Assembly: GCA_043718225.1 (NCBI GenBank)
Contig: JAYSWD010000062.1
Coordinates: 1-52,071 of the forward strand
Direction: 5' to 3'
Source: Candidatus Omnitrophota bacterium
GTDB taxonomy: Bacteria > Omnitrophota > Omnitrophia > Omnitrophales > Aquincolibacteriaceae
DNA: 52,071 nt
The position numbers and the translations under genes were made by a program. Of the stretch, positions 42,101 to 51,267 are shown piece after piece (the stretch's first letter is position 1; the number at the start of each line of letters is the position of its first letter). The notes beneath the pieces are model-generated. The model was not told the DNA's origin and searched no databases. It saw nothing but the letters and a program-made list of their open reading frames with translations.

Positions 42101-45100
42101 CTGCGGCTTCTCCCGCGGCAACGATCAGAATCCCCAAAAAAACGGTTTTGTGGAATTTTTCTTTTAACCTATTTTTTTCGTCGCTTGTATTTATATCTCT
42201 CATTTCGGAACGGGGGCTCGTAAACTCCGGATCATTCGCGCGGTTAGGAATGAAATTTTTAATTCTGTGCAGCAATTGGCCATATTCTTTGCGCGCATGA
42301 TCATCGTAAGAATATTCAAGGTCCATTTGGTGATACATATCCGCAAGTCCTGTTTCAGTTAAACCGGGCACGAGCAGCAACATTTCTTCAAAAGTTGTCT
42401 TCCTTACAAAAAAATCAATGAACCATGCGCGGTTTTCTGCGGCAAATGCATTCAATAAAATTCGGTCCCAAGCCGCGGGCATTGCCTGTCCGTTGCTTTC
42501 AAGCGGGTGTAGCAAGTTCTCAAAAACCCAGGGAATACTTGGTCTAATATAGTTAACATTTTCTGTCCGGCTGGCCGTTTCAATTTCACGAACAGCCTTA
42601 AGAAGAGCCGGACGGTGCTCAACAACAAAATTCTGCAATGGATATAATGATCGAAAGGATTTAAGAGACGGCTCATTTCGCCCATAGGGCCCGACAACGA
42701 TTCCGTCATGCCAGCCCGGATGGGCCCAGTAATACAGAGAGCCCGCTAAGTAACTGGTTAAGCCAACTTTCAAACTGACAAGCAATTCTTCTTGGTCTTT
42801 CTGCGGAACATTCGAATCAAACTTGCCCGTTTCAAGCGTGCGGATAGCCAATGTCAAACTGCGGCGCGGGAAAAAATCGGCCCATTCTTCCTTATACGGG
42901 CCTTCCATCGTCAAACTCTGCACGTGCATGCCAAGTAAAAAAAGCGTAAATGCGGCCATGCGGTATTGATATTCACCGGGCAATTGAATGCCGCGTCCCG
43001 CGAGACGCATTTCTGTTTTTAACTCTGCACCTGTTACAGCCTGATTCGTCGCCAGCTGCATCAGAAGCGTCAACGATAAACCCCATTTTCTTTGCGAAAA
43101 ACGTTGATTAAATTGCGCTACTATTGTTTCGATTTTCTTTAAATCCTGCAAATCGGGATTTGCGCTCGCAAGTACAGCGGTTGCAATCGCCATAAAAAAA
43201 TTCATCCATGCGCGCTCAGCAACAGTCGATGTCTCCCCTTTTATTCCTGATTCCATCTTGTGTTTAAAGGCGGACCAATGCTTGTCAAAAAAGCTCAATT
43301 CGTCTTGATGAAACTTGCCGCGAATTTGGTCGACAATACCATTCAATGCCTGGGCGTCAACTTGACCAATCGCCATTTGGCGTTCCGCCTGTTCAGCCCA
43401 TCTTTGCAAATCTGCAGAAAATATTTTTGCTTCCCGCATTTCGGAGCGGGCAAGACGCAATGCTCGGCCGGTCTGACGCACAGTTTTTATCACATTTTTT
43501 TCAATGGGCGGGCGGCCGGTTTTTTCCTTAGACTCGAGATTTAAAGAAAAGCGGTAGACATTTTCTGCAAAACCAACAATGGCGGCGGTCGAAAAAAGCG
43601 CAACGGGACCGTGTATATTTTTTTCATGCCACTCTAGGAATTTCTCCGGAGTTAAAAATCGATAAACATTAATCCCGGGAAAACGGCGCCCCAGCCTGAC
43701 AAGCGTATCCTTAGCGATATCTTCATCAGGATGTACCACCACCAAATGTTCAAAGCCGGGCACGGCCGCATCGCCTTCAATGAACATGGCCTGCCTATTC
43801 GCTTTGCTTAAAAGTTCGCGAAAATCAAACCAGCGAATGTTCCCTGTCTTTTCAAATGGCTGTAATTCTTTAAAAAAATCACCGTTTCTCTTGGCCGCTG
43901 GAAGCGTTTTGATAATGCTTTTCTCAACTAACCCAACCGCAAAATGCACATGCGCCGCGACGGGTGATTTTGGATTCCGGCTTTTTGCGATTTTCCCAAC
44001 CATACTTCCCGCTTGAATTTTACGGCCTATTTTGATTTGCTGATCCAAGTCCAAATGCATATAGAAAGTCATGGGAACGTACGTTTTTCCTCCAAAACTA
44101 ATTTCTGCCGGATGCAAAAATGCGGCTGTTTGGCGCATGTTGTCATCGAAAATCCAATAAGCTACGCCTTCACCAAAAAATGCGGGAACGGACGTGCCGA
44201 TCAAAATATTGCGCCGATTCGCATGTGTATCCTGTAAATAAACGAGATCGGTCGCTTCATGCCGGTTGCCGCCAAAAGATTCTTGGCGTAGTTTCCCCTG
44301 CCCCCAATGTGTCCTGAGATCGGCATAACCCATGCCGCGGCCAATTACGAATTTTTCATTTCGACCCAGACGATTCAGCATTTGCCGCAGCCTCTCCGCA
44401 AATCTCGCCGGTTCAAACCCCTGGCTTATTAATTGCTGCTTAATTTTGGAATGCTCAGCCGGTGTCAATAAATACGCGGGCCATGACTCCGAACCATCAG
44501 CGCGGGCAACAGATGGTTGATCCCGCATTTCGGAGTGATTATTTTCAACTTCCCAAAAAATATTTTCTGAATGATTCCTGTCATAATCACCTTGGAACCG
44601 GCGACCGCTATAAGCATCCTTCCGGATTGGGAAAAATTTATCGATGTGATGAAGAATCGTTTTTTCTTCCATGTAAGGGCGCATATCGGCAAGTAAATAA
44701 GCTCGACCTTCTTGCAGCAATTCTTTTGATTTAGCCAGCCATTCGCGCGGATTGCCAAGCGGGTCTGTGCTTAAATCAATCATCGTCACAAGATCAAATG
44801 AATGCGGCGCAAGATTGTTTTGTGTTAAATCAAGCTTCCCAATTTCAGCGTGAATAACGGGGTAGAGCAAAGGAGCAATTCCTTTGGCTTCTAATTGGTC
44901 ATTTAAATTTTTTCTGGCCATGCTTATGGAACGCGTTAAGGCTGCATCGCCATCAACAAAAACTACATCTTTCCCCATTAAATATAAAAAATGGGGCAGC
45001 CATTTTGAGCCGTTACCGGCCACCAGCACTCGCTGAACAGGCCGCTGTGAAATTTCTTCCGCAATGATTTTTGTCCGGTCAAGTTCATCTCTAAGCTGAT

Positions 45101-48100
45101 CCAGATTTAGCCGGTTGACTGACCTAATTTCTGAAAATAAATCGTAAACTTCCTGCGGTGTTAAATCTCTGCGCAGTTCGGAGCGTTGAAACAACTGACC
45201 CTTCCCAACCGCGTAGGTTGAACCTACGCGGTTATTCGAGGTAGCAAGCGCCCGCATTTCGGAGCGTGCAAGCTTTTCCAGCGAGGGACGAAGCCATACG
45301 AGTCCACGTTCCAGCGTTGTTCGAACTGCGTGAATTTCCTGGTAATAATTTTCAAAAGCGGCGCGAACCTCGGGCGTAAATGCTTCACGACTTATCGCGG
45401 AGTACTTTTCCTGTTCCTTGGCGATTCGTTGTAAGAAGAAATCAATTTGATCGGTTCCAGTAGAAGGTGGCCGCAGCTTTTCTACCCAGCCTTCAACCAT
45501 TTTAATTTCTGTAATTGTCGGCTGCTCCCCATCGTCACTCTTCCCATCTAACATCTGTAATACGGTCGTTGCCATTTTTTGTCTGCTCGATTGACTTTCC
45601 AACGCTAACACCTTCGCCGCAACGTAAGCTAAGGTTTGATTGCTGTGAGTACGAAAAAATTGTTCCAAACTGCTTCTGAAGTCTGCTGATTGAGCACTAA
45701 GTGCTCGCATCAAAACCTCAAATGCTTTTGACATATGGCTACTTAAAGACGGTACAAACATTTGCCAAAGCTTAACGGTTAAATCGTCCGAAAGAATTTG
45801 CGTGCGCTCGGCTGATTTCAAGGCGCTTTCAAAAATTTGGATGTCGCCTGAAAAATAGGGGCGTAAGAATCCTTTAGGCTTTTCATAGAATCGTTTTTTG
45901 AATAATTTCTGCGCCACCTCACCCGTCACCTCCGGGACCAACAACTCAGAAAGTTCCTTTTCAAGCTCTCTCTGTATTTCGAAATCATGAAACCACTTCT
46001 TGACTGCCCCAACCCATTCCCACACCCTTTCCCACCCCCGCATTTCGGAGCGAACCTTAACCAAAGGCGGTGTCTGAATATTGGGATCTCCCTCCAGCTC
46101 AATCGTATTGCTGTCCAGCCATAAAACACGTCCGATTTCCTGCATAGGCTCCATTTTAAAAATCTTTCCATCATCGGTTATTCTTAATGTCATACCCAAA
46201 TTAAGATTCTGCGGAATGGCAGTCTCCGGAGCCGTTTCGCTGATTTTTTCGACCTGATATAAACCGTCTCTCTGATTTAAAACCCGCAGGCTAATATATG
46301 CCTGCGCGCTCCTGTCAGGAGTCACCATTAAAACCGAGCCCTGTTCTGGTTTACGGGGATCCAAAAATGGTCCCCGTGCAGACCATTCTTCAAATGGCTG
46401 CTTAACCGCTTTGAGAGAAGAGCCGACTTTTAAATCTGAAAGCCATCGGGACAGAGCTCTAATCAATGAAAAATTTCCGGTCTCACCGACAAAAAACCGT
46501 GCATGCTCGGTTTGCGCCTCCCATATCAGCCAATTTAAAATGGTTAATCCAACCGCTTGCCCCTGATATGTTTTAAAACTTTCTTCTGATGCGCCGCCAA
46601 GCGGATGAAAACCATGAACAATTTGGTAGCCTTTTTTACCGTCTGGAAAAATATTCCTTATAAAAGCAACGGACCCCGTTTTTTTATTTTCGATAAAAAC
46701 ATCAGCGTGATAAAAATCATAGGTCCCGTATTTCTCGTCCATCCCCTTTTCTGAAAATTCGACCGCGAGCCGAACAGATGGGCCGCCGTTTTTTAAGTTT
46801 TTTAATTCGATTTGACGCACTTTAACTTTTTTGGGCCATTTTTTAAAAAAACCTTTCCGAGATTCGGAACGAGCTTTCACGAATGAATTGCGAATAGCCG
46901 CTGGTGGCTTGCGAGAAACCATTGGGGACAGTGCTGAAACAGCTTGGTACCCTTTGATTTCAGCACGCCAAGACTGTGGCTCAAACGGATGCGGTTCAGC
47001 GGGACTCATCGCTCGCAAATGCGACGTCGCGGTCATGAGCTTCAAATAATTCTCGCGCCCTTTGATTTGGGCAATTCGAGGCTGGATACGGACGTAGGAA
47101 ATATTATTCTGTTTGAGCAGTTCGCCCAAACCCGCAGAGTGAAAACCTCCGGTGATGATCGCCGCCTTTTCGATTTTTTCTTTTTTAATCCAGGCGAGCG
47201 TGTTATTAAACATCATCTCATCTCGTTCTTCAGCTGTTGTGTAAAATTCAACCGCCTTCTCGCAGACAACCTTAACGCTCGCGGGCCACGAACCACGAGC
47301 CACGTTAACGTCCATGCTCTGCCGTGGCCCGTGGTCCGTGGTCCGTGGAACGAGCTGTTGCCACTCATCCTTAGAAAGTTCAAGACGCAACAATTTCCGG
47401 AGCAAAAGATATTCGCGGTATTTTTGAATGAGTTTTTTCTCATCCGGAGTTTGCGCCAATTTTTCAATCAGCTTGTCTTCGAGGTTTTTAATTTCTTTGA
47501 TCAAAGCGGGGGCGTCCAATTCCTGTGTAAGAATCTGCTTCCCCCACTCCTTGGAAAGCACGGGATAATCTTTGAACTTAAAACCTTTCGGCGATGCCCG
47601 CTCATAAAAATTTTCAAAAAACTGACGGACATCTCCGCGTTCCACGGGCCACGGACCACGAGCCACGGAGAGAACGTCTTTGGACAATCCTTTTTGACCC
47701 AACCATTCGCCCAACCGCTTTGTTTCTATTTCTATATTCGTGTTTCGTGGCTCGTGGCCCGTGGCTCGATCGTAAGATTTCAACTTTTGAAATCTGACGA
47801 GCATGGGCCAATCGTATTGTTCGCGTGCATCGCCCAAGTCTAGATTTAAAGATTTGCGCGCATGGCTTGCGAGCGACTCGATATGACGGGCATAATCTGT
47901 TTGAACTTCTTCCTGAAAACTCCATTGCCGAAAATAAGCGGCAAGCTCTGGATTTAAAACCTGCGAAGCTTTCGTCAAAAGCCCGGACTTCATTTCATTC
48001 AAGAAAGCGTTGGATTTTTCCTTCGCGCTTATCACAGCACGAAATTGTTCGAGATTTTTTTTGTAAAGATCGAGATCTTCGATTCCATAGCCCTCAACGC

Positions 48101-48674
48101 GTGAAGCGTGAAGCGCATTTCGCATCTCGCCCGCTTCACGTTTCACGAGATACGCTTCACTGCTTTTTTGAGCATTAGCTAAAAAAAGCTCAGGTCCCCC
48201 GACAATGCCTTTTTCGGTCAGCTCAGAAAGAATCTTTTCATTCTCACTTGAATCCTTTGAAAATCGCAGCAAGGCCGGGTCGAGCTTGCTCCAGGCGCCT
48301 TCGAGAAAAAAAGTTTGAATTCCATATTCTTTCTGCAAATGTTCGAGAATCGCCTGTGTATTTTTCTGAGCTTCGGGTTCACCGTGCGCATCTTCGATAT
48401 GGATAAGTTCCACGGGCCACGAGCCACGAGCCACGTCAAAACTCGAAATTTCTTGGATGGATCCAAGCGATGATGGAATTTGAATTTTATTCACCAGCGA
48501 TTCAACTTTTATCCCATCGCTGACGACTGACCTCTGATCACTGATCACTTCGGAAAATGGAGCCGGCGCGGCCCATGCGGCCGTTTCCAAAAGAAAAAGC
48601 GCCGCCATGCTGACAGCGACGGCTTTTTTCCAAACTGTGCGGGCTTGTAATTTAGGCATTAAAATTGTACGCAA
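21102..48674 (-). CDS. giant multidomain secreted/membrane protein (9,190 aa in the track; about 9,185 aa from the first ATG)
   Basis: One stop-free frame of 27,573 nt. The first ATG (48659) gives MPKLQARTVWKKAVAVSMAALFLLETAAWA|AP, a Sec-type signal. Several recognisable enzyme folds lie in the same frame (see sub-features). The track start at 48674 is TTG. Confidence 0.85.
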   Translation of the reverse strand: MRTILMPKLQARTVWKKAVAVSMAALFLLETAAWAAPAPFSEVISDQRSVVSDGIKVESLVNKIQIPSSLGSIQEISSFDVARGSWPVELIHIEDAHGEPEAQKNTQAILEHLQKEYGIQTFFLEGAWSKLDPALLRFSKDSSENEKILSELTEKGIVGGPELFLANAQKSSEAYLVKREAGEMRNALHASRVEGYGIEDLDLYKKNLEQFRAVISAKEKSNAFLNEMKSGLLTKASQVLNPELAAYFRQWSFQEEVQTDYARHIESLASHARKSLNLDLGDAREQYDWPMLVRFQKLKSYDRATGHEPRNTNIEIETKRLGEWLGQKGLSKDVLSVARGPWPVERGDVRQFFENFYERASPKGFKFKDYPVLSKEWGKQILTQELDAPALIKEIKNLEDKLIEKLAQTPDEKKLIQKYREYLLLRKLLRLELSKDEWQQLVPRTTDHGPRQSMDVNVARGSWPASVKVVCEKAVEFYTTAEERDEMMFNNTLAWIKKEKIEKAAIITGGFHSAGLGELLKQNNISYVRIQPRIAQIKGRENYLKLMTATSHLRAMSPAEPHPFEPQSWRAEIKGYQAVSALSPMVSRKPPAAIRNSFVKARSESRKGFFKKWPKKVKVRQIELKNLKNGGPSVRLAVEFSEKGMDEKYGTYDFYHADVFIENKKTGSVAFIRNIFPDGKKGYQIVHGFHPLGGASEESFKTYQGQAVGLTILNWLIWEAQTEHARFFVGETGNFSLIRALSRWLSDLKVGSSLKAVKQPFEEWSARGPFLDPRKPEQGSVLMVTPDRSAQAYISLRVLNQRDGLYQVEKISETAPETAIPQNLNLGMTLRITDDGKIFKMEPMQEIGRVLWLDSNTIELEGDPNIQTPPLVKVRSEMRGWERVWEWVGAVKKWFHDFEIQRELEKELSELLVPEVTGEVAQKLFKKRFYEKPKGFLRPYFSGDIQIFESALKSAERTQILSDDLTVKLWQMFVPSLSSHMSKAFEVLMRALSAQSADFRSSLEQFFRTHSNQTLAYVAAKVLALESQSSRQKMATTVLQMLDGKSDDGEQPTITEIKMVEGWVEKLRPPSTGTDQIDFFLQRIAKEQEKYSAISREAFTPEVRAAFENYYQEIHAVRTTLERGLVWLRPSLEKLARSEMRALATSNNRVGSTYAVGKGQLFQRSELRRDLTPQEVYDLFSEIRSVNRLNLDQLRDELDRTKIIAEEISQRPVQRVLVAGNGSKWLPHFLYLMGKDVVFVDGDAALTRSISMARKNLNDQLEAKGIAPLLYPVIHAEIGKLDLTQNNLAPHSFDLVTMIDLSTDPLGNPREWLAKSKELLQEGRAYLLADMRPYMEEKTILHHIDKFFPIRKDAYSGRRFQGDYDRNHSENIFWEVENNHSEMRDQPSVARADGSESWPAYLLTPAEHSKIKQQLISQGFEPARFAERLRQMLNRLGRNEKFVIGRGMGYADLRTHWGQGKLRQESFGGNRHEATDLVYLQDTHANRRNILIGTSVPAFFGEGVAYWIFDDNMRQTAAFLHPAEISFGGKTYVPMTFYMHLDLDQQIKIGRKIQAGSMVGKIAKSRNPKSPVAAHVHFAVGLVEKSIIKTLPAAKRNGDFFKELQPFEKTGNIRWFDFRELLSKANRQAMFIEGDAAVPGFEHLVVVHPDEDIAKDTLVRLGRRFPGINVYRFLTPEKFLEWHEKNIHGPVALFSTAAIVGFAENVYRFSLNLESKEKTGRPPIEKNVIKTVRQTGRALRLARSEMREAKIFSADLQRWAEQAERQMAIGQVDAQALNGIVDQIRGKFHQDELSFFDKHWSAFKHKMESGIKGETSTVAERAWMNFFMAIATAVLASANPDLQDLKKIETIVAQFNQRFSQRKWGLSLTLLMQLATNQAVTGAELKTEMRLAGRGIQLPGEYQYRMAAFTLFLLGMHVQSLTMEGPYKEEWADFFPRRSLTLAIRTLETGKFDSNVPQKDQEELLVSLKVGLTSYLAGSLYYWAHPGWHDGIVVGPYGRNEPSLKSFRSLYPLQNFVVEHRPALLKAVREIETASRTENVNYIRPSIPWVFENLLHPLESNGQAMPAAWDRILLNAFAAENRAWFIDFFVRKTTFEEMLLLVPGLTETGLADMYHQMDLEYSYDDHARKEYGQLLHRIKNFIPNRANDPEFTSPRSEMRDINTSDEKNRLKEKFHKTVFLGILIVAAGEAAARYWHFPFLSDFYLFVKSFHWGGVAVGELCVSLVIAAATGALTDYYTQIISDYPAYKHHVKERFFYFMLMRFALGLITFISNYYLIDLFKNHAARFILSASIGVFFSSLAGVYFNGYWNRKGIRAMERAGEAHENISNYSSLKQWKKDGKGVLGRLPIVVAMHDFAQNVVPDLRIPVVFIVGFFLQLFRNLMANSQNPRISLPGYFKVNILAVSGFALLGGTNTAIISAFSIIAVTTISTVIVRRYTSARSEMRGDQIHFIADQAPPVWKPRAVTALKHSASRLLERVQKWRAAYETKEKLNPERHEFDTGGGIAWFEPEAPFLQKERVHQAEQMLAHAARDWSNASSDHLRQLRDMRPWSLKGLLDRMSLGDPTLYGPYIADFYAAYAAFEPQTFDEYMSALKEMYDQKLEEYEEKMPGVNQTEWETIFKLAIRTQSAKAYKEFKKQRNRDTKSIKNWPEYFFKIIKRYLKIHAPALYPYLENALILKQGDRGRAKILLHTRKWGDLEFISLLDGGRIKGDAWNAAAYHDSEFNSDRSEMRSNTNEIPDWVKAFEENLKSRSANFEKHTGIKMRVSNSLQDGIFIYLVPADEGLQKEFSRIDAQLQLDNVSFYNGEIGRVALMPVLTGGENLEEKRAFLIREIHPGVAFRHIFKEGNLSFLGYDEARKKVLERHLDEWVHEILMEVFSASTDTADIDAVYVTPDDLSKIQNPGIVYDQDLRFYLRPFKGWLPRKLISYRSVFHTWTEVNERNNQDVLDYKIAKMGLGGEWNLWRWSLNDEKELVVGIEDQVHQRFSRLANRVIEKSRQSNGMTWATKGGELGVTAASGAALPALIEGKILSVWNDSDEKAVLIEGHHLVTVYRGLKLSEDVHIGKYFNAGATIGNVLSGKPAKIQFFWIPNPRDLGKALDLETLSRWQRQRRVFLLQPEHLFTTQRSEMRTNESPEAALRRKAFFTKYQNGAEISPEVREIYLQIFPKPLRDEYGIGEEIAVAGEAAGLRPRAQVIELTQAVGTEHADLALEFFKILPQATTVNSFEIILRAKNDVLTIETEGDLPKFKQATNEFGNYYSSVLRYWLQYHLFPAARRMGFHEIQIKNQRNPAHVLIPTGFTPVGTGAIWSKNLISLEVFGKTEDEQIHALEEEWHDWLPADVTMRFKRDDKGVSINSPSKFHVVFYHKLPDGGLGEPIKIKGKGLGAEKIAEFALARSGADPFINFEKIIAGVPSPSLTSLEMFRGMQYWLQRRGFRGSELWKNTLGLSKEKRSTWLDQVVAIWKREGRMPTVSKTGPVYNFRGIYFYLPEIDLSPRRSEMRIDPADAAAFRSQEFYRMHVELRHLQDAYRAALDQSGNTDEVENKIEAYAEGLTPYFREIRSGDDTENAVFKTITAMDEIAAREFLNRVKKEVYAKEKIWRQKYLTAGPPDVFLKDLLFSYKQRLKAQIRLLGFYLSDAYHNQSTLGTLSLAISSTYRQIGKVHDAYQVQAKTAAPKVSVVSEQGTRIHTLNYEGHPVFRIWTAPDGKIVVHQVVWKYVSQANGPRILVPAVTPFHFQDLETAYRGRTKVIKSQEKDHAELLERHLELAQIIEELRDPEIDKAGSAEDWEKRLALIAEGKGGLNRKIAIVQKEGRALPRPKDSVSMALSDIKAQRWGDAAFHLEQADTWVQTRLDDVIRKKELGERKIPFLYHKLRKQALKSAVIQLEKSIQSARPNAENVASAREKLEEIEATYFKFVVSDPNYRQVQSRLKLLVVTTKTLEGMFARKAKTVSQIAGILKNSGEIKKSIARWNLKPARSEMRDELIVGGDDAGNKQALLRLAEKFIREKIQSEENKFLVKWLRFKRPRLEVNDTLAEEFSEFLSKQAFALGYWQPVFEKIKAENGHEPALRIMPAQHFIESIPVLAEDLLLHTAGYLERSQTRRLFLQNLFGALVAVAANPALEAFHNLAVKELDKETLKILSHVLWDAVSKTRPRLSAAAAPLQYERNALVSFLANDLGPNEEYLHEAWLRKNGTAIHSAAAWLRSQMPLRAWPVYFKDLFFGKTTEGLPTLFATPFADRGVFQISSFDHLLQAALPRLARIESWVGSLSDETVKQLDHIRRHANLEAIGLSSNNNNQRALEVATREHIAEQKNEVEAKQSLDKASISEQQWWWDYYQNQMIENLHGRVDYEDYKADLEAQRQVEEKIRALRQQIEALSAEEKKEASLFQGLMNALQQFDLLQQAEPAALILPASETRSEFRKQGIYSPFGSLIISLAMLLLTGIAYLRGTYSYATFLITGLSLFLMILSLSALRKVPSQKWYEPLSKPPLTEKQKKEIRDAIRPFDGYGPLGILLARSRQNPGKFIYILVKSKQSQNPLFASPIVEGPDGMHIEDQPKIWDGFTGEQLAGREDWQPEPEIIYSDASVHAALSKINFLENGLLTSMYADEPSDVLGNMLMAPLLTPAIYLGAGITAHSDLPPDQAFLSNWFVIGQLEGQDAELGRKISHILNPSRSETRVKEESETGDSRRETNWVLSGETDVVEGNVAQRGFVAKLFTRVQNIYARSEMRLNYAKGIRLFFKNVVFVGVFYAMAWFAYSNLFSLMGNILGYVALLAVAVRINEKFGDNFEWRLNTLINAARPIIQLSTPEKLSKKVAWLNRFGRLHLKFESKNTDVIVQNHRFYNVIGMHASTYAAIPGEPYGVYIHHKQGVSFVYFAGSAGVLSRKLSKKSVAKLESETRDFLNFAYAPALFHDRYNKSEVSLKKIARDFILTGFFGAVVCVSIYKLTFNDFGFWGTSLWSGLYVTATYFGFAGNISAFATGVTELFTVVTASLWGRLSPHQMQLTRLSSRRSEMRRQIQTNAQRLMTNDSEQSQQSSADHVQSESGIITNLSTSNVTNLFATFSGVSWPMSRSIAWSKALTVGGWTLSHTKPGVLKKLYRLPSEKSRSRVMRMRPSNLASWTTAPFLIPLGTVMTSWVMESARMTSIRIFSSARKRNLGGKAQRVSAIRQLRREMKRSPNRIHRQRGEAFQNSLGSFSGLENFQRLRNQNAGSTETGLAMADFGVARDMSLNQSVHAGKFSTRPQGGQVIRPDIRSEMRVSNIAELQRQLNKPTTVMFSDTYENLTKPDAFQEKSKILAQHPIAKPIYEQALKILGKISGAKNMSYLYLEGFDPAHPNTVQLTYSGFVYEYALYLVLKNKLGKRFKTAHFYGKSMGQFAALAASDAVSFEDMAQYVLRISRLFYLSQRRYGKQLRYVRVIGSGLGEPSIRKKIIEKLKAYSGDEPQITVDEGDEYFQIVVRVAQGKEDSFSAMIKGLGKELRAEGIPAGVRLSAIQLDPSAYQNPHHSYNEKIHAAILEATHGLKIENPKIPLIPFSINSTEVLDDADKIRRELGNGFYETLASERALDVVRQSSGLAIEVGYGSRLTKALAKRNPPKAIAAIDDLFQRPASEESQAKQSLLNHPYFGNSIRRALLDFKKKTKKSGSLNDLTKSINKKRRAVISSGLYRRLEAKEIGDFLAANSVLNPDFFESIKDVSYALENRKKYKFKNDPAILAKENTGLYRAAARHGFEWHDGGWHEPADPQLETTKYLLTAEEHAKVLPQLNNSAFDAETLAAGLRQMLASLGRDEQIVIGPGTGYGDEKTFWGDLKTRRKSYNGHWHTSTDVVYLQDRQGNRRPVPIDTTVPALFGKGKVHWIFRDNMAQSVVYFHQGEVEIDGEVYVPMTIYMHLELDEAVQPDHESEPGSAVGKIVDSQNKKSPVAAHVHSGVGFFKKSILEAISQAAFKKGKYDENLTYVLQDFEKTGDIRWLDFREMLKPDDRKALFIEGPEAAPGFQYMAVIGPDEKKRSLLTPALGRQFPTIPFLKFDTWKAFIKWRRQNRDSTVALFSKNRSAKLTLDTKVHFVSIHGPEEIEGKMPGVRDEGKKLRLARSKARSEIRGVSEEQILKFLPLLSGVNLKEVLQLTQPGEALYGFDLKEYAGFTSLQPAVMSQSKNKRARHGSLATLLTGAAIIKGRALGLPEGVIRPVPGGVNNNGGLKDVGAFQKSFKEWVFDPLVQKFEMIKLQTSAPDNAFTLRVRNPSPAEVVFPPAFQMTDFAARSADDATQFLREFVLAARPYLPKNSKILIDAVLGGYDLQTPLGKERFSLRWIPEYGGGYLSYSPGTAAPDVHAEIRASEFQMLELVRRGEDIQMTVVVTPGSMIKFKEIAQRLPPNIRIASAEVRRVRTNQKFNIHELIDATVKRSASGLRLELHSKNRHGLFKVAANKSGNKHAWINPDIAEGVASTASLDLKKKPMGILQLADGWIFYHFLGYENRQHQLQFIYTYSRSEMRLAQGEAAQFAQDPIVVQTRLSRETLDPLIQKIKEKIGSRSRMKYVNLVLQHLQAIVNSGAEPEIYGFDELRWSKDSYLLGFTSKNKMSLGNGFFDRAAFKDKEEYLDFTSEALFRAGIESLLSKTDRGGLPREDGLIGKLSKSVFGASKNEKYLELYQKFVDLTEPRFLKSAVARFNAFTEGSPYFSTEYLMENWMRYDKEDKPYPVFQQAGYLTAKLVPLIEVKKDILTPALPSGISQSNKEQREVLLEGLFKIVAPLFIFCVYRYNLLSVQNETYKTMLSMVKDELNDQTPLGHQGLVGEPSETDIAQKVERSLRERKFVFSPTPPLIIHHTVFSGLSSEAFEAQTKQEEKLYKLFFFDMPEGWRQETLSMYTWNQADNVVPVPVLGAIKPLKILEILQILSGHRRGLMVAGDDSPAENLNWPGLSLINEEQSSRTPDGKVEVVTVYPRFAQFYAPRPKLFFHFDGPTKSVRIQTYAQSLWSDILAWLQPEKATYFTSANEPEKNLFISLMKVRAQLTEHTKRPGYFAPSGIDVGPWAAQISRLQAKVLLPLWEQSLKYYSSTHALLEAHKKPGNDRDLFRHYTMFTSPNGLFAWLAENLETIAGTDRLTDKAARNFLDVFMAVQWSSLGMQDLSAGNHFLYKKFSEFARLHPGGVSIPALDEFKKFLIQYVRAPAKNSTALREDFRSWKKQFAADYPEGINDEDNAIPTQSREWPYLKPGAGKAQLRFSQPSVFAPEEFPEADLLNPERYPVWLGVSGQVRAVWTGIYQKDGLHIPGSSYRYIIDQVKAGEILRVAVFENQVQISRVMPTAMGAEESEVLLITMLESFKREEGNRVGTWQKLPSTEIVEKAQPVGAERRIAGSGFFSLPLPVNSDGLVTFIYKDKKIRLNISQATGQSSVLIQVRKNHLIFYSANVEACLGQVDLSGGEPSSYPSGLIEILPGLHPAVEKIEPQSVVEYRNLNHLAGLLAPLMATGTGYETIALAREGTQILVGDKVVTIPAAFVNAPETLAQIPERLKAVLEEKDPVYIVKKHSNKLQTLLNDNPFDRGSGTWNILRDAVRLEKLDSDDAWLPQGKKEYEEIFFRLKKTLRWLRVIRKIDKAREAAAQTRGANNEFANMAQPGTLRPMLQRLAQNDLAGKVSSPFYFSKGRETAYSVPGAMKHGSIFKEMEGVGLMTPQFFELDSAGDFILREGMSHDEMPHIILRVKTSPVAGGTPAKYVLLIFNYNTGKRLDKVQHEYRSLQAKVAIAKKELFDHIQTLARKRSGTLIENEQRFNELLSHFLDAYDLPLQAEALNHLKDILPELLYSGNEVVKFAMLKILFEHIRIQGINDLPNKLTLEQARVIRQNLTLIFDPNLNGSMDFEAQSFEPFLDEVLVPAVHFTLWHLTNPDTYLELVTHLEGIRDHIKEYMDQFPDHANQITGTWTSVAHAKQYGLGTDVFPEKIQEYFVKKYFREKNEAEAAAARLAAERNAAAEAASRVRVQAKHVMQISSFGGNRTGTTSLGFTLGETTIIVDSGSSTHGEELRAPDYSELNEQNPPKAIFITHVHGDHVGYVLTLWKKLKKEVPVYLTPGSRALLPIVLKGMIGGSAGYSIDDVNEFLDKEKKYVRTLEPGKWYTVSPEMKVQFYPEAGHLRGAAPVVVATPYGNTVFLGDISVDDQGPIVGLKQWSPDIPIHTVIAESTRGMEIIPDQKQEEEKLVALVQATVKQEGKILLPVSANGMAQRVLHILLKNRAKFGNRMKIVVDGKAGTYTANWQATFPEELTGPNVILVSRGGHDRALQEHTAPNNIPTVIIASPANGNGTAGEFAQRLKWDSRNAIVFVDVFGERDPAQQLLNKRDETPARIERLQFEAHPSGAQILTLLNQMFIAGRTAESVEHINFQVYFHHGSRVHMREMNLAAQKTHYKWHPSALKDSGYVKRLKGSSFISAQKAWYERLSTEDISGVSHNLAVAQPNSAEATERSELRGVAVTHDDNHVVPDAKGAIRSEARDGEGARGEPPDRMGIVITRRPDNSLDEKLYEDVSAEDLFNTRVVISGIYQFGITRGVRTQAVRLEVSFTAELEEDAMEVPPDSGNYVRMVRIKRGSVDLPAVAFEQGRGDTKKLRDQLKKDLSGVELPKGFWIHVIPADDSSKNGFIAPPEIEKAVKAAPASPGAKASASSPTRAVKRSEMRSQKISVINPRVKTIIEKATALKPGSKELYWLMTRQKTKHLTEAILILGRDFDKNRRSIAEIFEFVLKRKEYRINKLIQNNRRLDVVSETPGSERVKIPYDLALGYARSMPAEIRALLPEYSNWPEYRYIWERAKEGEVRKAGWITHAEKEAVRRLVPEANRRKAVYYSAGLDILTPIFVLGDMSDEISYVDHRGFDFLFYPGEGYLRGFLNSKNIQLLKFDDTARQLVIKFQGRQITLKFYMAHNYDYPFAYGDAGLIYGFGLAGNPPQLSAHLRNNPTGIAAFFIRGADIVKKPPQWKKISENVDFYRSENRLVSDAAKATAKVAEDVFSVKVVRGFSRSEFREFFAVAFSELTEQMKMAKTDRALQKLNSAAYITDGLVLGEKLALDKGFLQAVKHNYVGQFVAVLAENEKQRIEIQRQVDLLGLKNVKAFLSVVDAAKFARGNKSTALRGWLSSNDDIQVAVELKKVVPDTQRLMDSQIKRFYLDLDLAWLVDRIFSSRITSSAA
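22630..22643 (-). repeat. 14-nt junction motif, 1 mismatch
   Basis: CGCATCTCGGAGCG. Still RSEMR (GAG for Glu). Confidence 0.8.
23176..23189 (-). repeat. 14-nt junction motif, 2 mismatches
   Basis: CGCGCTTCGGAGCG, translated RSEAR. Confidence 0.7.
23461..24700 (-). other. giant ORF: metallo-beta-lactamase fold, beta-CASP-type (RNase J/CPSF-like) domain
   Basis: HVHGDH (24495-24512), then EAGHLRGAA, VIAESTRG, EGKILLPVSANGMAQRVL, IIASPANGNGTAGE, FEAHPSG and YFHHGS, in the order of MBL motifs 2-4 and beta-CASP motifs A-C. Confidence 0.7.
29167..29180 (-). repeat. 14-nt junction motif, exact copy
   Basis: + strand CGCATTTCGGAGCG, which reads CGC TCC GAA ATG CG (RSEMR) in the giant-ORF frame. 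Confidence 0.9.
30349..30362 (-). repeat. 14-nt junction motif, 1 mismatch, with local partial duplication
   Basis: CGAATTTCGGAGCG, translated RSEIR. Followed by GGCTTTGGAGCGGGC, which repeats the 3' half (peptide ARSKARSEIR). Confidence 0.8.
30363..31410 (-). other. giant ORF: M23 metallopeptidase, copy 2 (paralogue of 43449-44480)
   Basis: HTSTD (31170-31184) and HVH (30867-30875). Collinear with copy 1 over about 350 aa, from LLT.EEH.K to RLARS. Confidence 0.7.
31870..32874 (-). other. giant ORF module: FabD-like (malonyl-CoA:ACP transacylase fold) acyltransferase
   Basis: Nucleophile elbow GKSMG (32523-32537) within FYGKSMGQFAALAASDAVSFEDM. Later NPHHSYNEKIHAAILEA (His region) and LAIEVGYGSRLTKALAKR. 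These are collinear with the FabD motifs GHSLGEY.AL / SH / IEVGPG..L. The N-terminal GQGSQ motif is not conserved (FSDTYEN). Confidence 0.55.
32875..32888 (-). repeat. 14-nt junction motif, exact copy
   Basis: CGCATTTCGGAGCG, in-frame RSEMR. Borders the antisense-TA module. Confidence 0.9.
32943..33179 (+). CDS. DUF433 domain protein (putative antitoxin), antisense to and inside the giant ORF
   Basis: 78 aa: ITSDPEICHGKPCFRGTRILVSETLEILEAGETPEAILKSFPSLSMDSIRAALHFAA is the canonical DUF433 sequence. ATG at 32943; the track ORF opens at 32748. Confidence 0.75.
   Translation: MDTLIQTHITSDPEICHGKPCFRGTRILVSETLEILEAGETPEAILKSFPSLSMDSIRAALHFAAQLTNRGDSLSLAS
33169..33528 (+). CDS. DUF5615 (PIN-like / Mut7-C-like) protein (putative toxin), antisense to and inside the giant ORF
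   Basis: 119 aa: FLADENI....IRAL....DV..V......NGAVVQLAKLEGRILITRDRDF matches the DUF5615 pattern. 11-nt overlap with the DUF433 gene, as in type II TA pairs. TTG start in the track. Confidence 0.7.
   Translation: MPPKFRFLADENIRIEVIRALSITHDVITVPKGIKNGAVVQLAKLEGRILITRDRDFSEGNRYNFFNTPGFVWLKVHPPTVSALLQAMDLLIGQLTPEKVANKLVTLEVDKFVIIPDSD
33564..33606. repeat. TAGTC/GTCTC-word low-complexity element next to the TA pair, in frame in the giant ORF
   Basis: GTCGTTAGTCATTAGTCGTTGGGCATTAGTCTGTATCTGTCTC, directly abutting the motif copy at 33607. Confidence 0.55.
33607..33620 (-). repeat. 14-nt junction motif, exact copy
   Basis: CGCATTTCGGAGCG, in-frame RSEMR. Borders the antisense-TA module. Confidence 0.9.
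33621..34467 (-). other. giant ORF module: membrane module (2 N-terminal and about 3 C-terminal helices)
   Basis: FFKNVVFVGVFYAMAWFAY, ILGYVALLAVAV, FILTGFFGAVVCVSIY, LWSGLYVTATYFGFAG, ATGVTELFTVVTASLWG. Confidence 0.55.
34468..34481 (-). repeat. 14-nt junction motif, exact copy
   Basis: CGCATTTCGGAGCG, in-frame RSEMR. Confidence 0.9.
34581..34606. repeat. GTCTC-word element in frame in the giant ORF
   Basis: GTCTCTCGTCTCGAGTCTCCGGTCTC. Same word family as 20415-20459. Translated ETGDSRRET. Confidence 0.6.
34624..34637 (-). repeat. 14-nt junction motif, 1 mismatch
   Basis: CGCGTTTCGGAGCG, translated RSETR. Confidence 0.8.
35240..35393 (-). other. giant ORF: two-helix transmembrane hairpin
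   Basis: FGSLIISLAMLLLTGIAYL and ATFLITGLSLFLMILSLSAL, directly after the RSEFR junction. Confidence 0.55.
36718..36731 (-). repeat. 14-nt junction motif, exact copy
   Basis: CGCATTTCGGAGCG, in-frame RSEMR. Confidence 0.9.
38164..38177 (-). repeat. 14-nt junction motif, exact copy
   Basis: CGCATTTCGGAGCG, in-frame RSEMR. Confidence 0.9.
39280..39293 (-). repeat. 14-nt junction motif, exact copy
   Basis: CGCATTTCGGAGCG, in-frame RSEMR. Confidence 0.9.
40477..40490 (-). repeat. 14-nt junction motif, exact copy
   Basis: CGCATTTCGGAGCG, in-frame RSEMR. Confidence 0.9.
41341..41354 (-). repeat. 14-nt junction motif, exact copy
   Basis: CGCATTTCGGAGCG, in-frame RSEMR. Confidence 0.9.
41355..42198 (-). 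other. giant ORF module: polytopic membrane segment (about 7 hydrophobic helices)
   Basis: TVFLGILIVAAGEAAA, GGVAVGELCVSLVIAAATGAL, FMLMRFALGLITFISNYYLI, FILSASIGVFFSSLAGVYF, IPVVFIVGFFLQLF, ILAVSGFALLGG, IISAFSIIAVTTISTVIV. Confidence 0.6.
42199..42212 (-). repeat. 14-nt junction motif, 3 mismatches
   Basis: CTCATTTCGGAACG. The peptide is still RSEMR, but with CGT/AGA Arg codons. Confidence 0.7.
43435..43448 (-). repeat. 14-nt junction motif, exact copy
   Basis: CGCATTTCGGAGCG, in-frame RSEMR. Confidence 0.9.
43449..44523 (-). other. giant ORF module: M23 (LytM-type) metallopeptidase, copy 1, plus C-terminal extension
   Basis: HxxxD as HEATD (44247-44261) and HxH as HVH (43944-43952), separated by the usual beta-rich segment. 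Confidence 0.7.
44524..44537 (-). repeat. 14-nt junction motif, 1 mismatch
   Basis: CGCATTTCGGAGTG, translated HSEMR. Confidence 0.8.
44538..45171 (-). other. giant ORF module: class I SAM-methyltransferase-like Rossmann fold
   Basis: VLVAGNGSKW (motif I-like, 45000-45029), VVFVDGDAALTRSISMARKN (motif II-like acidic residue) and FDLVTMIDL (motif IV-like). Confidence 0.45.
45172..45185 (-). repeat. 14-nt junction motif, 1 mismatch
   Basis: CGCAGTTCGGAGCG, translated RSELR. Confidence 0.8.
45207..45233. repeat. perfect 27-nt palindrome in frame in the giant ORF
   Basis: AACCGCGTAGGTT-G-AACCTACGCGGTT, lying between two junction-motif copies 67 nt apart. Confidence 0.75.
45253..45266 (-). repeat. 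14-nt junction motif, exact copy
   Basis: CGCATTTCGGAGCG, in-frame RSEMR. Confidence 0.9.
46039..46052 (-). repeat. 14-nt junction motif, exact copy
   Basis: CGCATTTCGGAGCG, in-frame RSEMR. Confidence 0.9.
47284..47348. repeat. CCACG-word palindromic element in frame in the giant ORF
   Basis: GGCCACGAACCACGAGCCACG, 18-nt loop, CGTGGCCCGTGGTCCGTGGTCCGTGG. Translated PRTTDHGPRQSMDVNVARGSWPA. Confidence 0.75.
47642..47768. repeat. CCACG-word palindromic element (long loop) in frame in the giant ORF
   Basis: Arm CCACGGGCCACGGACCACGAGCCACGG (47642-47668) and inverted arm CGTGGCTCGTGGCCCGTGGCTCG (47746-47768). Confidence 0.7.
48099..48160. repeat. GTGAAGC-word palindromic element in frame in the giant ORF
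   Basis: GCGTGAAGCGTGAAGCGC ... CGCTTCACGTTTCACGAGATACGCTTCAC. Confidence 0.65.
48410..48435. repeat. CCACG-word half element in frame in the giant ORF
   Basis: CCACGGGCCACGAGCCACGAGCCACG, translated VARGSWPVE. Confidence 0.65.
48520..48548. repeat. TGATCAC-word low-complexity tract in frame in the giant ORF
   Basis: CTGACGACTGACCTCTGATCACTGATCAC, translated VISDQRSVVSD. Confidence 0.45.
48558..48659 (-). other. giant ORF: predicted signal peptide
   Basis: Basic n-region (KLQARTVWKK), hydrophobic core (AVAVSMAALFLL) and an AWA-like cleavage motif. Confidence 0.6.
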
Positions 48675-48837
48675 CTGATTGATTTATAAGATGTTCGAAA
48701 AAAGGTACATGGTGTCTTTGCCTCTTACAAGACACTCCTTCAAAACTCATAAATTCTTTTAATCTTTGAGTGCCAATGCTAGTTTTTGATAGCTTGCCGG
48801 CGTAGTATTTTCCCTTCTTTTTTGGCCAAGACGACCA

Positions 48838-48846
48838 TGCTATAAT
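48838..48846 (+). promoter_or_regulatory. candidate extended -10 promoter for ahpC
   Basis: TGCTATAAT (TGn + TATAAT), about 110 nt upstream of the ahpC ATG. No good -35. Confidence 0.35.
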
Positions 48847-48856
48847 TCCCCCCTCG

Positions 48857-48919
48857 TCCCCCGACTTGATCGGGGGATCTAGTCATAAATAAGTTCCCTG
48901 TTCCCCGCTTTTGCGGGGA
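48857..48919 (+). other. two G/C-clamp hairpins in the ahpC leader
   Basis: TCCCCCGA-CTTGA-TCGGGGGA (48857-48877) and TCCCCGC-TTTT-GCGGGGA (48902-48919). The second resembles 4785-4804, upstream of atpA. Confidence 0.55.
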
Positions 48920-48955
48920 CAAAGCTTCGCAGCGCAGGGATAAAAGGAGTTAATC

Positions 48956-49519
48956 ATGGTCCGAATCGGAGAAAAAGTAGAAGATTTTAAAGTCGATGTT
49001 TATCAAAATGAAGCTTTCAAAGAGCTGAAATTATCCGAATTAAAGGGTAAATGGGTCGCGATGTTTTTTTATCCGGCTGACTTCACTTTTGTTTGTCCGA
49101 CAGAATTAGAAGACGCAGCTGCGCTTTATGAGCAATTCAAGAAGGAAGGCGCGGAGTTGATTTCTTTTTCAACCGATACCAAGTTCGTGCATAAGGCATG
49201 GCATGACGTATCTCCCGCGATCAAAAAAGTAAGCTATCCGATGGCGGCTGACGCTTCCGGAAAAGTCTCGCGCCAATTTGGCGTTTACATGGAAGAAATC
49301 GGCCTCGCGTTACGCGGTAGTTTCGTGATTGATCCGGACGGTGTTTTGCAATGCATCGAGGTCAACAATCTTCCCATCGGACGCTCGATGGCTGAATTGC
49401 TCCGTAAAGTTCAAGCGGCTAAATTCGTACGCGACAACGGCGGCGAAGTTTGCCCAGCAAACTGGAAACCAGGCTCCAAAACTTTGAAGCCCGGTATCAA
49501 TCTCGTAGGAAAAATTTAA
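48956..49519 (+). CDS. ahpC: peroxiredoxin, typical 2-Cys (AhpC/Prx1 subfamily)
   Basis: FYPADFTFVCPTE peroxidatic Cys and C-terminal EVCPANW resolving Cys. AGGAG RBS. Confidence 0.92.
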   Translation: MVRIGEKVEDFKVDVYQNEAFKELKLSELKGKWVAMFFYPADFTFVCPTELEDAAALYEQFKKEGAELISFSTDTKFVHKAWHDVSPAIKKVSYPMAADASGKVSRQFGVYMEEIGLALRGSFVIDPDGVLQCIEVNNLPIGRSMAELLRKVQAAKFVRDNGGEVCPANWKPGSKTLKPGINLVGKI

Positions 49520-49642
49520 ATGAGCACAGCACTTGCGAAACATAGTTTCGCAAGTGCTCAGTGCGAATTTATCCTGAGCAAAGCGAAGGATCTTGTTTGA
49601 GATTGCTTCGCTACGCTCGCAATGACCACTTTAAGAACCGTT

Positions 49643-49701
49643 CCACGCTCCACGAACCATGAACCACGTTAAACCCGTGGCTCGTGGAACTTGGCGCGTG
49701 G
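49643..49701. repeat. CCACG-word palindromic element, intergenic copy (ahpC-sodB)
   Basis: CCACGCTCCACGAACCATGAACCACG-TTAAACC-CGTGGCTCGTGGAACTTGGCGCGTGG. Same family, and the same TTAA-centred loop start, as 47284-47348. Confidence 0.75.
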
Positions 49702-49723
49702 CACAGTAAACCGGAGGTTTACA

Positions 49724-50302
49724 ATGCCCTTCACTCTTCCCCCGTTGCCTTACGCGCATGACGCATTGGCGCCGCATTTATCGAAAGAAACTTTGGAATT
49801 TCATCATGACAAGCACCACAACGCCTATGTCGTGAAACTGAACGAGCTCACTGCCGGCAAACCAGAAGCAAATAAAACTTTGGAAGAATTAATTCTTACC
49901 GCAACCGGCCCTATTTTTAATCAGGCCGGACAAATTTGGAATCACACCTTCTATTGGAATTCACTTTCGCCGAAAGGCGGGGGCGAACCAAAGGGAAGAG
50001 TCGGCGATGCGATTAAAAAACAATGGGGCTCTTTCGACAAATTCAAGGAAGAGTTCTCCGCAAAAACCGTCGGTGTTTTTGGTTCCGGCTGGGGCTGGCT
50101 GGTTAAGAAAGAAGACGGCTCGCTTGAAATTGTGGCAACTTCGAATGCCGGCAATCCGATGACCGACAAGAAAAAACCCCTTTTGACCTGCGACGTTTGG
50201 GAGCATGCATATTACATTGATTATCGTAATCTGCGCCCGAAGTATGTCGAAACTTTTTGGAAGCTTGTGAATTGGGAATTTGCTGAAAAAAACTACAACT
50301 AA
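49724..50302 (+). CDS. sodB: superoxide dismutase (Fe type)
   Basis: MPFTLPPLPYAHDALAPH.S.ETLEFHHDKHH and AGQIWNHTFYWNSLSP (Fe-SOD-like), plus DVWEHAYYIDYRN. GGAGG RBS before the ATG at 49724. The track ORF opens at 49691. Confidence 0.92.
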   Translation: MPFTLPPLPYAHDALAPHLSKETLEFHHDKHHNAYVVKLNELTAGKPEANKTLEELILTATGPIFNQAGQIWNHTFYWNSLSPKGGGEPKGRVGDAIKKQWGSFDKFKEEFSAKTVGVFGSGWGWLVKKEDGSLEIVATSNAGNPMTDKKKPLLTCDVWEHAYYIDYRNLRPKYVETFWKLVNWEFAEKNYN

Positions 50303-50329
50303 ACTTCTACGAAATCATCGAATATCGAC

Positions 50330-50366
50330 AAAGCCCTAGAGCGCTAGCTTTAGGGCTTTTTTGTTT
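50330..50366 (+). terminator. rho-independent terminator after sodB
   Basis: AAAGCCCTA-loop-TAGGGCTTT followed by TTTGTTT. Confidence 0.8.
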
Positions 50367-51241: not shown

Positions 51242-51267
51242 CTTTTCAAACATTCAAAATATTCAGA

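Follow-up and report, generated by a model that had tools for sequence, protein, structure and literature searches.

Rickettsia palindromic elements (RPEs), as reportedly described by Ogata and co-workers in 2000, are said to be palindromic repeats that lie in frame within open reading frames (ORFs), including those of housekeeping genes, where they form extra surface segments, and that also occur in intergenic DNA. They are about 100-150 bp long and share a long family consensus. REP, BIME and REPIN sequences are short, dispersed, imperfect palindromes that are extragenic, often located in operon spacers, and linked to a RAYT gene. Genes of the PF05635 family are numerous in bacteria and, to our knowledge, have no known function.

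One setting of a PF05635-type gene is the 23S rRNA intervening sequence (IVS). In Coxiella, RNase III cuts the IVS in its terminal stem of 28 bp, and the 5' region contains tandem GACAGAT heptamers that vary in number among strains and adjoin the start of the S23p gene, with RNase III cutting at the first repeat; the IVS is regarded as a selfish element (PMC4990558). Heptanucleotide SSR or STRR arrays repeat a 7-nt unit in tandem and recur at many dispersed places, and slippage of the polymerase is given as their origin (Mazel 1990; Mrazek 2007; both as cited in PMC4679880 and PMC4692102). In Xanthomonas, 70-75 cases are described of two convergent GGGAATC arrays that could form stem-loops or cruciforms and for which no function is known (PMC4692102). 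At the hmw1A gene of Haemophilus influenzae, an (ATCTTTC)n array forms part of a 5'-UTR hairpin whose processing by RNase III sets expression (PMC12721329).

Here we examine a window, the whole 52,071-nucleotide stretch of a Candidatus Omnitrophota contig, in the light of these systems. Five palindromic elements that an earlier note had reported within its giant ORF are all present at the positions given there, and the features on which the analysis turns are as follows.

21102-48659, minus strand: giant ORF of 9,186 codons, counted from the ATG at 48659
N-terminus of the giant ORF, minus strand: signal/TM segment, then a conserved domain of about 560 aa that hosts all in-ORF elements
47284-47348, no strand assigned: site E hairpin; arm 47286-47304 of three CCACGRR words, arm 47322-47348 of four YYCGTGG words, loop 47305-47321 (17 nt, with 18 nt separating the CCACG and CGTGG cores)
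47642-47768, no strand assigned: site D pair; arms 47642-47668 (four CCACGRR words) and 47746-47768 (three YYCGTGG words)
48099-48160, no strand assigned: site C hairpin of GTGAAGC and GCTTCAC words
48410-48435, no strand assigned: site B, a solo array (CCACGGG CCACGAG CCACGAG CCACG) that lacks an inverted partner in its vicinity
48520-48549, no strand assigned: site A weak array of TGATCAC-type words, 3.4 copies with 82% matches
49643-49704, no strand assigned: intergenic hairpin whose words belong to the CCACG/CGTGG family seen in the giant ORF
18993-19095, no strand assigned: further word-built hairpin of AAAACTN-type words, in the spacer between an EVE-domain gene and a DUF423 gene
33564-33594, no strand assigned: solo array of GTCRTTA words, unstructured, the sole other period-7 array within the giant ORF

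The ATG at 48659 is the likely start codon, giving a protein of 9,186 aa. A signal/TM segment is read in its translation, and the element tracts fall in the first 1.4 kb, the 5' part of the gene. The N-terminal 620-2,000 aa have no match in Pfam or NCBIfam, and homologues show only weak ChaN/Tiki matches. An independent Logan assembly matches positions 42852-51503 of the window at 100% identity.

The tandem build from 7-nt words is borne out statistically. The CCACG-type unit has a fixed CCACG core and two variable purines, and is arranged in arrays of three to four tandem heptamers. The window contains 15 matches to the pattern CCACGNNCCACG where 0.06 would be expected, a count reached in 0 of 100 shuffles, and all 15 are confined to 47286-49687. 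TRF identifies period-7 arrays at 47286-47304, 47322-47348, 47642-47668, 47745-47768, 48099-48115, 48410-48435, 48526-48549, 49650-49668 and 49676-49704; seven arrays lie inside the ORF, with words that are degenerate at two positions and mostly form inverted pairs. Under a single criterion applied over the window, period 7 is the dominant short tandem repeat, with eight arrays as against zero to four for every other period from 4 to 12, and six of the eight fall within 1.15 kb of the 52-kb window (binomial P = 3e-9). The census of this genome covers these 52 kb.

Folding supports the description of most elements as hairpins for three of the five. Sites E (47275-47358; -52 kcal/mol, z -7.3) and D (47632-47778; -62 kcal/mol, z -4.8) fold stably, and site C (48085-48170) is marginal, with a z of -1.9 and 7 of 200 shuffles equally good, but the solo array of site B (z -0.9) and the weak TGATCAC tract of site A (z -1.4) have no significant fold. 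Outside the ORF, the intergenic copy of the CCACG family (49630-49715; -33.7 kcal/mol, z -4.1) and the hairpin at 18993-19095 (-35.6 kcal/mol, z -6.5) are also stable, and the array at 33564-33594 gives no structure. The intergenic copy, which the earlier note had correctly recognised, is located in the spacer between co-directional genes for a peroxiredoxin (48956-49519) and an Fe/Mn-SOD. At gathering thresholds, Rfam detects one tRNA in the window, no rRNA, and no RNA family over the elements.

The elements are translated as passenger peptides, since none of their words contains a stop in the frame in which it is read, and the peptides quoted previously agree with the translation. Site E encodes PRTTDHGPRQSMDVNVARGSWP within a variable loop of the homologue alignment, site B encodes VARGSWPV, and site A encodes VISDQR. 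Site C adds 23 aa compared with the closest homologue in the alignment; the only word there whose in-frame reading would be G-TGA-AGC has the degenerate form GTATCTC, and the stop, as read from the sequence, is avoided. The peptides of site D, RATGHEPRNT and VARGPWPVERG, flank a native 24-aa segment that is conserved in homologues. The notion of palindromic insertions does not hold for every element: site B is a solo array, and the arms of site D bracket native coding sequence and do not constitute a single inserted palindrome.

Comparison with homologues demonstrates that only certain lineages have gained the elements, which occupy five loops of the N-terminal domain where indels are tolerated. 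The closest homologue (protein P0001, DNA L122; 58% identity) has no period-7 arrays, and neither does a second one (P0004, L166); because the elements are lost or absent in both, they are dispensable for the protein. This absence upholds the view that they are nucleic-acid-level repeats read through by the ORF and not protein repeats. The earlier note had held that homologues conserving the same peptides would speak against that view, and one homologue (P0003, DNA L121), 41% identical, formally provides this, with similar peptides at matching sites; however, its DNA at those sites likewise consists of heptamer arrays. L121 and a third lineage, L123, have arrays at the five variable loops used in the window, often with other words: CGTGGCY, AGTCTCC or GTCCCGA at site B, depending on the lineage, and CCACGRR, CCACGAA or AAAGRAC pairs around one native segment at site D. 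Since L121 carries heptamer arrays and L123 carries different words at the same positions, it is the site that is conserved and not the peptide.

Hairpins of this type are found well beyond this gene. A complete metagenome scan returned 28 loci against about 0 expected. In a MiaB gene of a metagenomic organism, an in-frame hairpin produces a 12-aa net loop insertion relative to PDB 7MJZ; in a DnaE2-like gene, also metagenomic, an in-frame hairpin splits the PHP domain; and a single gene exceeding 2,300 codons contains three hairpins built from three different words. Other loci occupy 5'-UTR or intergenic positions. Stop-free stretches that flank hairpins in L124, L128 and L142 were left out as coding sequence, having no Pfam support and an odd composition. 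In a genome collection, the CCACGNN x4 arrays among the matches listed, which serve as examples and not as a census, come mainly from high-GC genomes and are solo and of one orientation in 108 of 125 cases; the array rather than the hairpin may be the primary unit.

The window also contains a gene of the family associated with IVSs, enclosed by arms of similar construction.

20009-20455, minus strand: PF05635 cassette, with the gene for a 23S rRNA intervening-sequence protein (four-helix bundle) at 20038-20409
20009-20044 and 20414-20455: cassette arms, inverted heptamer arrays of AGACARG words and GTCTCYR words, respectively

The gene is recognised by Pfam (E = 4e-30), matches TIGR02436 and has a homologue in PDB 2GSC. 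Arms of this kind are frequent among the genes of the family that were examined: 7-periodic inverted arms bracket 16 of 19 PF05635 genes, 16 of the 19 having been collected by protein homology alone and three (window, L126 and L140) from loci known for arrays, as compared with 2 of 73 control ORFs. A further cassette lies between cysD and cysN of a cultured Haloferula. In each of the seven cases that could be judged, from gene calls and for some frames by eye, the cassette and the gene upstream of it run in the same direction. In the literature, the Coxiella report alone was found to bear on heptamer arms around PF05635 genes in general. At L126 and L140, the cassette arms share their word with gene-less hairpins of the same contig. 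The cassette of the window uses AGACARG and not CCACGRR, which leaves a direct parent-offspring link in this genome hypothetical. Words and proteins may co-vary among cassettes: the window and L167 proteins (56% identity) are both associated with GAC-type words, and those of L159 and L161 (75% identity) with purine-rich words, a suggestive pattern only.

These data establish an architectural match between the elements and the stems on either side of PF05635/S23p genes in different phyla, the cassette of the window and the classical 23S rRNA IVSs among them. IVSs of Coxiella and Leptospira resemble the cassette and the elements in their terminal inverted repeat and in a stem of about 20-28 bp, and the GACAGAT words of the Coxiella IVS, which occupy the corresponding position, closely resemble the GACAGGA and GACAAGA words of the cassette arms. 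Stems of about 20 bp or more are predicted at 47275-47358, 47632-47778 and 49630-49715, and not at 48410-48435 or 48520-48549. The differences lie in content, place and fate. IVSs enclose an ORF, which is optional in the known examples, whereas the window elements enclose 17-77 nt only, with no PF05635 ORF inside; IVSs reside in helix 9, 25 or 45 of 23S rRNA, whereas the elements are in frame in a protein gene or in an mRNA spacer; and excision by RNase III is known for IVSs, whereas the elements are candidate substrates by analogy.

Other systems share part of this design. Likeness to RPEs, proposed in the earlier note, holds for in-frame palindromes that are read through and also occur intergenically, but not for the long consensus: the window elements have arms of about 17-30 nt made of degenerate heptamers, with unrelated loops, and elements of this type occur in unrelated phyla. 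REPs likewise have a family consensus and are extragenic, in contrast to the word-array build and partly intragenic location seen here, and no Y1 transposase (RAYT) gene was found among the ORFs scanned in the 52-kb window. As tandem, dispersed 7-nt units of at least three copies, the window arrays conform to the SSR/STRR description; cyanobacterial STRRs and long SSRs, as summarised in the secondary accounts cited above, are intergenic direct repeats of fixed words, whereas these arrays are degenerate, mostly in inverted pairs, and translated within an ORF. Xanthomonas GGGAATC and Nostoc GGGGAYT repeats (PMC4692102) are also tandem heptamer arrays, but their words are G-rich, G-quadruplex candidates and intergenic, as opposed to a CCACG core inside an ORF. 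The hmw1A tract is comparable in that a heptamer array supplies one arm of a long RNA hairpin, at the 5' end of a transcript that encodes a very large surface protein; it differs in being long and perfect (at least 11 units), paired with a non-repeat G-rich arm, located in a UTR and proven in phase variation, whereas the window elements are translated. The architecture, which the earlier note could match to no described family, has precedents in the convergent Xanthomonas pairs, in the hairpin of the Haemophilus hmw 5'-UTR and in the Coxiella IVS.

The explanation to which we give slightly better than even weight is that the elements are heptamer repeats acting at the nucleic-acid level, gene-less members of the PF05635 stem class, which may affect mRNA processing or half-life. 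Such gene-less members would be tolerated in permissive loops. Slipped-strand replication and template switching would create and homogenise the arrays, and both arms could thereby lengthen by 7 nt at a time without losing the ability to pair, if in a slipped register. Once transcribed, paired arrays would form stems of 19-25 bp, of the kind cut by RNase III in the hmw leader of Haemophilus and in IVSs; for this reason the likeliest effect would be on the processing or half-life of the 27.5-kb mRNA and not on the protein. At mismatched arm positions read on the sense strand, the elements in ORFs show 13 G:U against 34 A.C mismatches (18 of these 34 from one single gene) and the cassettes 38 G:U against 41 A.C. 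Neither set has a G:U excess, so that a role at the DNA level is as plausible as selection at the RNA level. In several elements, such as that of MiaB, pairing is limited to the 5-nt cores, with 2x2 internal loops at the NN positions, which would make poorer RNase III substrates.

An unlikely though still serious alternative is that the arrays are neutral by-products of heptanucleotide slippage, SSRs tolerated in loops, with no function and no relation to PF05635, their inverted pairs arising by quasipalindrome template switching. Heptanucleotides are reported to be the most abundant class of long SSR in most prokaryotic genomes (Mrazek 2007, as cited in PMC4679880 and PMC4692102), and the mostly solo CCACGNN arrays among the genome-scan matches listed, the close homologues without elements and the missing RNA wobble signature are all in keeping with this proposal. 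However, an origin in situ predicts site-specific words, and the occurrence of one word family at at least five sites in 2.4 kb, and in other genes and organisms, thus counts against it. The inverted pairing of like words is also too regular for chance, and the association with PF05635 genes ties the architecture to that family.

It is improbable that the 7-nt tracts serve as a phase-variation (contingency) switch, slipping to shift the frame and toggle the giant gene. The unit length is no multiple of three, the tracts fall early in an ORF with a signal/TM segment and a probably surface-exposed product, and control of the large HMW1A adhesin by a heptamer SSR (PMC12721329) provides a precedent. 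Yet the tracts are imperfect and have at most four units, a switch has no need of inverted pairing, the same elements are found between genes and within the housekeeping genes for MiaB and DnaE2, and no difference in copy number was seen between independent assemblies (window and L001, L131 and L151, L142 and L149).

There is still less reason to believe that the peptides (VARGSWP, PRTTDHGPR and others) are functional motifs or linkers of which the nucleotide repeats are a mere reflection. The similar peptides of P0003 would agree with such a role, but the two arms of an element are complementary as nucleotides and encode unrelated peptides, the heptamer arrays make use of all three reading frames, the words recur outside coding DNA at 49643-49704, and at the sites in the giant ORF the third lineage has other words and peptides and the closest homologue none. 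The least credible alternative, that the arms are recombination sites of intragenic invertons that flip the enclosed coding segment, draws on the 77 nt of coding DNA between the site D arms, which stays open when inverted in the window, and was rejected because inversion would bring in stop codons in L121 (sites A/B and D) and L123 (site D), two of the three lineages compared; no invertase gene was found among the ORFs scanned.

Beyond the gene-less, stem-class reading favoured here, a wider proposal is possible and is advanced tentatively: that heptamer-array inverted repeats form one cross-phylum class, whose full form is the cassette of PF05635 (an Avd-like four-helix bundle), until now recognised only as the 23S rRNA IVS, and whose gene-less derivatives colonise operon spacers and, in frame, protein genes, including the giant gene, MiaB and DnaE2, with a PF05635 pentamer recognising its own arrays and governing their processing or spread. 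If true, such a class would account for where IVSs come from and also for the unexplained heptanucleotide-repeat excess of bacterial genomes.

We know of no textbook example of in-frame palindromic “selfish DNA” in genes other than that of Rickettsia. If the favoured reading holds, this in-frame tolerance would extend, with a different build, to Omnitrophota and other uncultured lineages, and to housekeeping enzymes as well as giant genes. For annotators, the arrays yield odd low-complexity peptides and frameshift-prone tracts in conserved proteins. PF05635 function would become testable, in that the protein may act on its own flanking arrays or RNase III may free its mRNA from operon transcripts, and IVSs, the heptanucleotide-repeat excess and RNase III hairpins of the hmw type would become linked.

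The window is chromosomal DNA of an Omnitrophota bacterium, with ATP synthase and Nuo genes, and CCACGNNCCACG occurs in it 15 times versus 0.06 expected, always within 47286-49687. Word-built elements had been described in the earlier note within the 5' part of the giant ORF and intergenically, and Tandem Repeats Finder recovers a period-7 array at every coordinate named there. A single uniform criterion yields eight arrays of period 7, as against 0-4 for periods 4-12, and six of the eight lie inside 1.15 kb (P = 3e-9).

Giant ORF and strongly folding elements (RNA fold, z versus shuffles)
48659 (ATG) to 21102, minus strand: giant ORF, 9,186 codons
47275-47358: hairpin at site E, -52 kcal/mol, z -7.3
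47632-47778: inverted pair at site D, -62 kcal/mol, z -4.8
49630-49715: intergenic hairpin, -33.7 kcal/mol, z -4.1

As RNA, these three elements far outfold shuffled sequence. Of the others, the GTGAAGC element folds marginally (z -1.9), 48410-48435 is an unpartnered array, and the TGATCAC tract is a weak array. The region is identical in an independent assembly, so the elements are not an assembly artefact. Elsewhere in the window, a hairpin of AAAACTN-type words (18993-19095; -35.6 kcal/mol, z -6.5) occupies the spacer between EVE-domain and DUF423 genes, both on the minus strand, and the non-coding stretch 17313-17484, between small minus-strand ORFs that lack a Pfam match, holds 1.9 copies of a 90-nt unit (79% matches). 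Simple hairpins, none word-built, are found where the giant ORF and a peroxiredoxin gene diverge, in their promoter region (two, GC-rich, CCCCCGA...TCGGGGG and TCCCCGC...GCGGGGA, 48856-48935), and directly past the peroxiredoxin stop (perfect, 14 bp, 49528-49558).

The N-terminal 620 residues of the giant protein were aligned with 14 homologues, which are Omnitrophota proteins, and DNA was obtained for four (loci L121, L122, L123 and L166). The arrays sit at five sites (A to E), each of them a loop in which the family varies by indels. No period-7 array occurs in L122 (58% identity, the closest homologue) or in L166; L121 (41% identity) has them at all five sites, and L123 (58% identity) at sites B and D, with another near site E in a frameshifted part of the gene. 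Words at the same site often differ between lineages. The site B words are CGTGGCY (window), AGTCTCC (L121) and GTCCCGA (L123), and the site C hairpin is built of GTGAAGC in the window and CCACG in L121. At site D, an inverted pair, made in L123 of AAAGRAC/GTTCCTT in place of CCACG/CGTGG, surrounds one shared native segment (about 24 residues) in all three lineages, and this segment is conserved also in homologues without arrays. Given these differences in wording and the absence of arrays from L122 and L166, the element peptides are not conserved protein features; the recurring feature is the placing of a heptamer array in a loop that tolerates it. The earlier proposal that the elements are genomic repeats and not protein repeats is thereby borne out. 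CCACGRR has no stop codon in any of its six frames, and the sole word of the GTGAAGC element that would read G-TGA-AGC is degenerate (GTATCTC), which is consistent with selection subsequent to the origin of the array.

Other features of this gene family were noted. The domain at the N-terminus of the giant protein (46800-48659, minus strand) has invariant DAH, EAQKN, EG(G) and GGFH motifs, exists also as stand-alone proteins of about 500 residues, and has no Pfam match; the ChaN/Tiki superfamily is matched weakly by three homologues (best E = 0.003). Two contigs have a broken homologous gene: L123 shows an apparent frameshift (~1773-1828), which follows an array at a distance of about 40 nt downstream, and L122 a run of N at about 1700. 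Just upstream of the gene in L121, on another Omnitrophota contig, is a strong ATAAGTG/ACTTACC word hairpin (86-170; -37.5 kcal/mol, z -8.1).

Rickettsia palindromic elements (RPEs) are an already known kind of in-frame element, and the likeness to them that had been suggested extends to other genomes. Among the matches listed, a genome scan with four CCACGNN words found many phyla, solo arrays being the majority, and hairpins resembling those of the window in MAGs of Patescibacteria, Clostridia, Methylomirabilota, Gemmatimonadota and Verrucomicrobiota. When metagenomes were scanned completely for three words followed by a loop of 5-35 nt and three inverted words, 28 loci were recovered versus none expected, several of the hairpins being in 5'-UTRs or intergenic. 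Two concern housekeeping genes of other organisms. A hairpin in a MiaB gene (L145 1653-1707) makes an in-frame net loop insertion of 12 residues relative to PDB 7MJZ, after LLGQNVNSY; another (L140 4205-4395), in frame in a DnaE2-like polymerase gene, lies within the PHP domain and splits its Pfam match in two. An ORF of >2,300 codons from an organism of GC 0.50 (L131, the same locus as L151) holds three in-frame hairpins of three different words.

In-frame hairpins of L131
2177-2246: TAGGGGA words
4046-4107: CAACGST words
6119-6186: CCACGGG words

From these reading frames, RPE-like in-frame tolerance is real beyond the giant gene. On a metagenomic contig of GC 0.66 (L144), kilobase-scale CCACGAC/CGACGAC heptamer blocks followed by their inverse (82-1260 and 4052-4490) make very large word-built palindromes.

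The same build is common to the stems of PF05635/IVS genes. One such gene lies directly downstream of a 4Fe-4S ferredoxin-domain gene (20444-21049), itself next after the giant ORF, and encodes a protein related to DGR Avd and PDB 2GSC.

PF05635 cassette of the window (minus strand)
20038-20409: PF05635/TIGR02436 gene, four-helix-bundle protein, '23S rRNA intervening-sequence protein'
20009-20044: arm of AGACARG words, abutting the gene
20414-20455: inverted arm of GTCTCYR words, abutting the other side

PF05635 genes encountered by chance in CCACG-array loci (L126, L140, L058) are bracketed likewise, and in L126 and L140 the arms share their word with gene-less hairpins of the same contig. 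By protein homology alone, PF05635 genes were taken from 14 loci on viral and five on cellular contigs; together with the cassettes of the window, L126 and L140, which had been selected for their arrays, and minus duplicate loci, 19 cassettes were compared. Inverted flanking repeats of 7-nt periodicity bracket 16 of the 19, versus 2 of 73 control ORFs from the same loci, in varied words (TCGGCNN, AGGAGGC, GGCTGTT, GGACTGC, TAGTCYG, GACNATW, GGTGAYN). An HMM search of the DNA collected for the analysis added one cassette, in the cysD-cysN spacer of cultured Haloferula sargassicola; a pheS-pheT spacer of a Patescibacterium holds another. The cassette is co-directional behind its host gene in all seven judgeable cases (gene calls or frames read by eye).

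Co-directional cassette insertions in operon spacers
L168 1944-2420 and L007 1775-2345: pheS-pheT (Patescibacterium) and cysD-cysN (Haloferula sargassicola) spacers
L167 9944-10400: behind a radical-SAM gene, Omnitrophota MAG
L170 1813-2420: between HAD-hydrolase and Lar_N-domain genes

The arrangement is that of the Coxiella IVS, in which an S23p ORF is enclosed by a 28-bp terminal stem cleaved by RNase III and three tandem GACAGAT heptamers, strain-variable in number, lie beside the start codon (PMC4990558). The window PF05635 start, 4-5 nt from the 5' arm, is preceded by an AGAAGA motif resembling one described for that IVS. An excess of heptanucleotide SSRs (PMC4679880), convergent GGGAATC pairs in Xanthomonas (PMC4692102) and the heptamers of the Coxiella IVS (PMC4990558) are already known; in the literature searched, neither heptamer-array hairpins in frame nor a general rule of heptamer arms at PF05635 genes was found described.

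The elements are lineage-specific, occupy permissive loops, and act as nucleic acid, DNA or RNA. Against an RNA-only view, G:U is not in excess over A.C at mismatched arm positions on the sense strand: ORF elements of the window, L121, L123, L131, L140, L142 and L145 give 34 A.C versus 13 G:U, the opposite of an RNA-stem signature, with 18 of the 34 from L121 (5' arms CCACGAA, 3' arms CGTGGCC). Pairing of some elements through 5-nt cores only also counts against it. Inversion of the flanked segment was rejected, as stop codons arise in two of three lineages. The heptamer tracts could in principle serve as a phase-variation switch, but they are short, imperfect and invariant between assemblies. 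Slippage and template switching would expand the arrays, and arms built of words would still pair after indels of whole words. Stems in the transcript may be RNase III substrates and so alter mRNA processing or stability, a step with a precedent in the H. influenzae hmw leader (PMC12721329).
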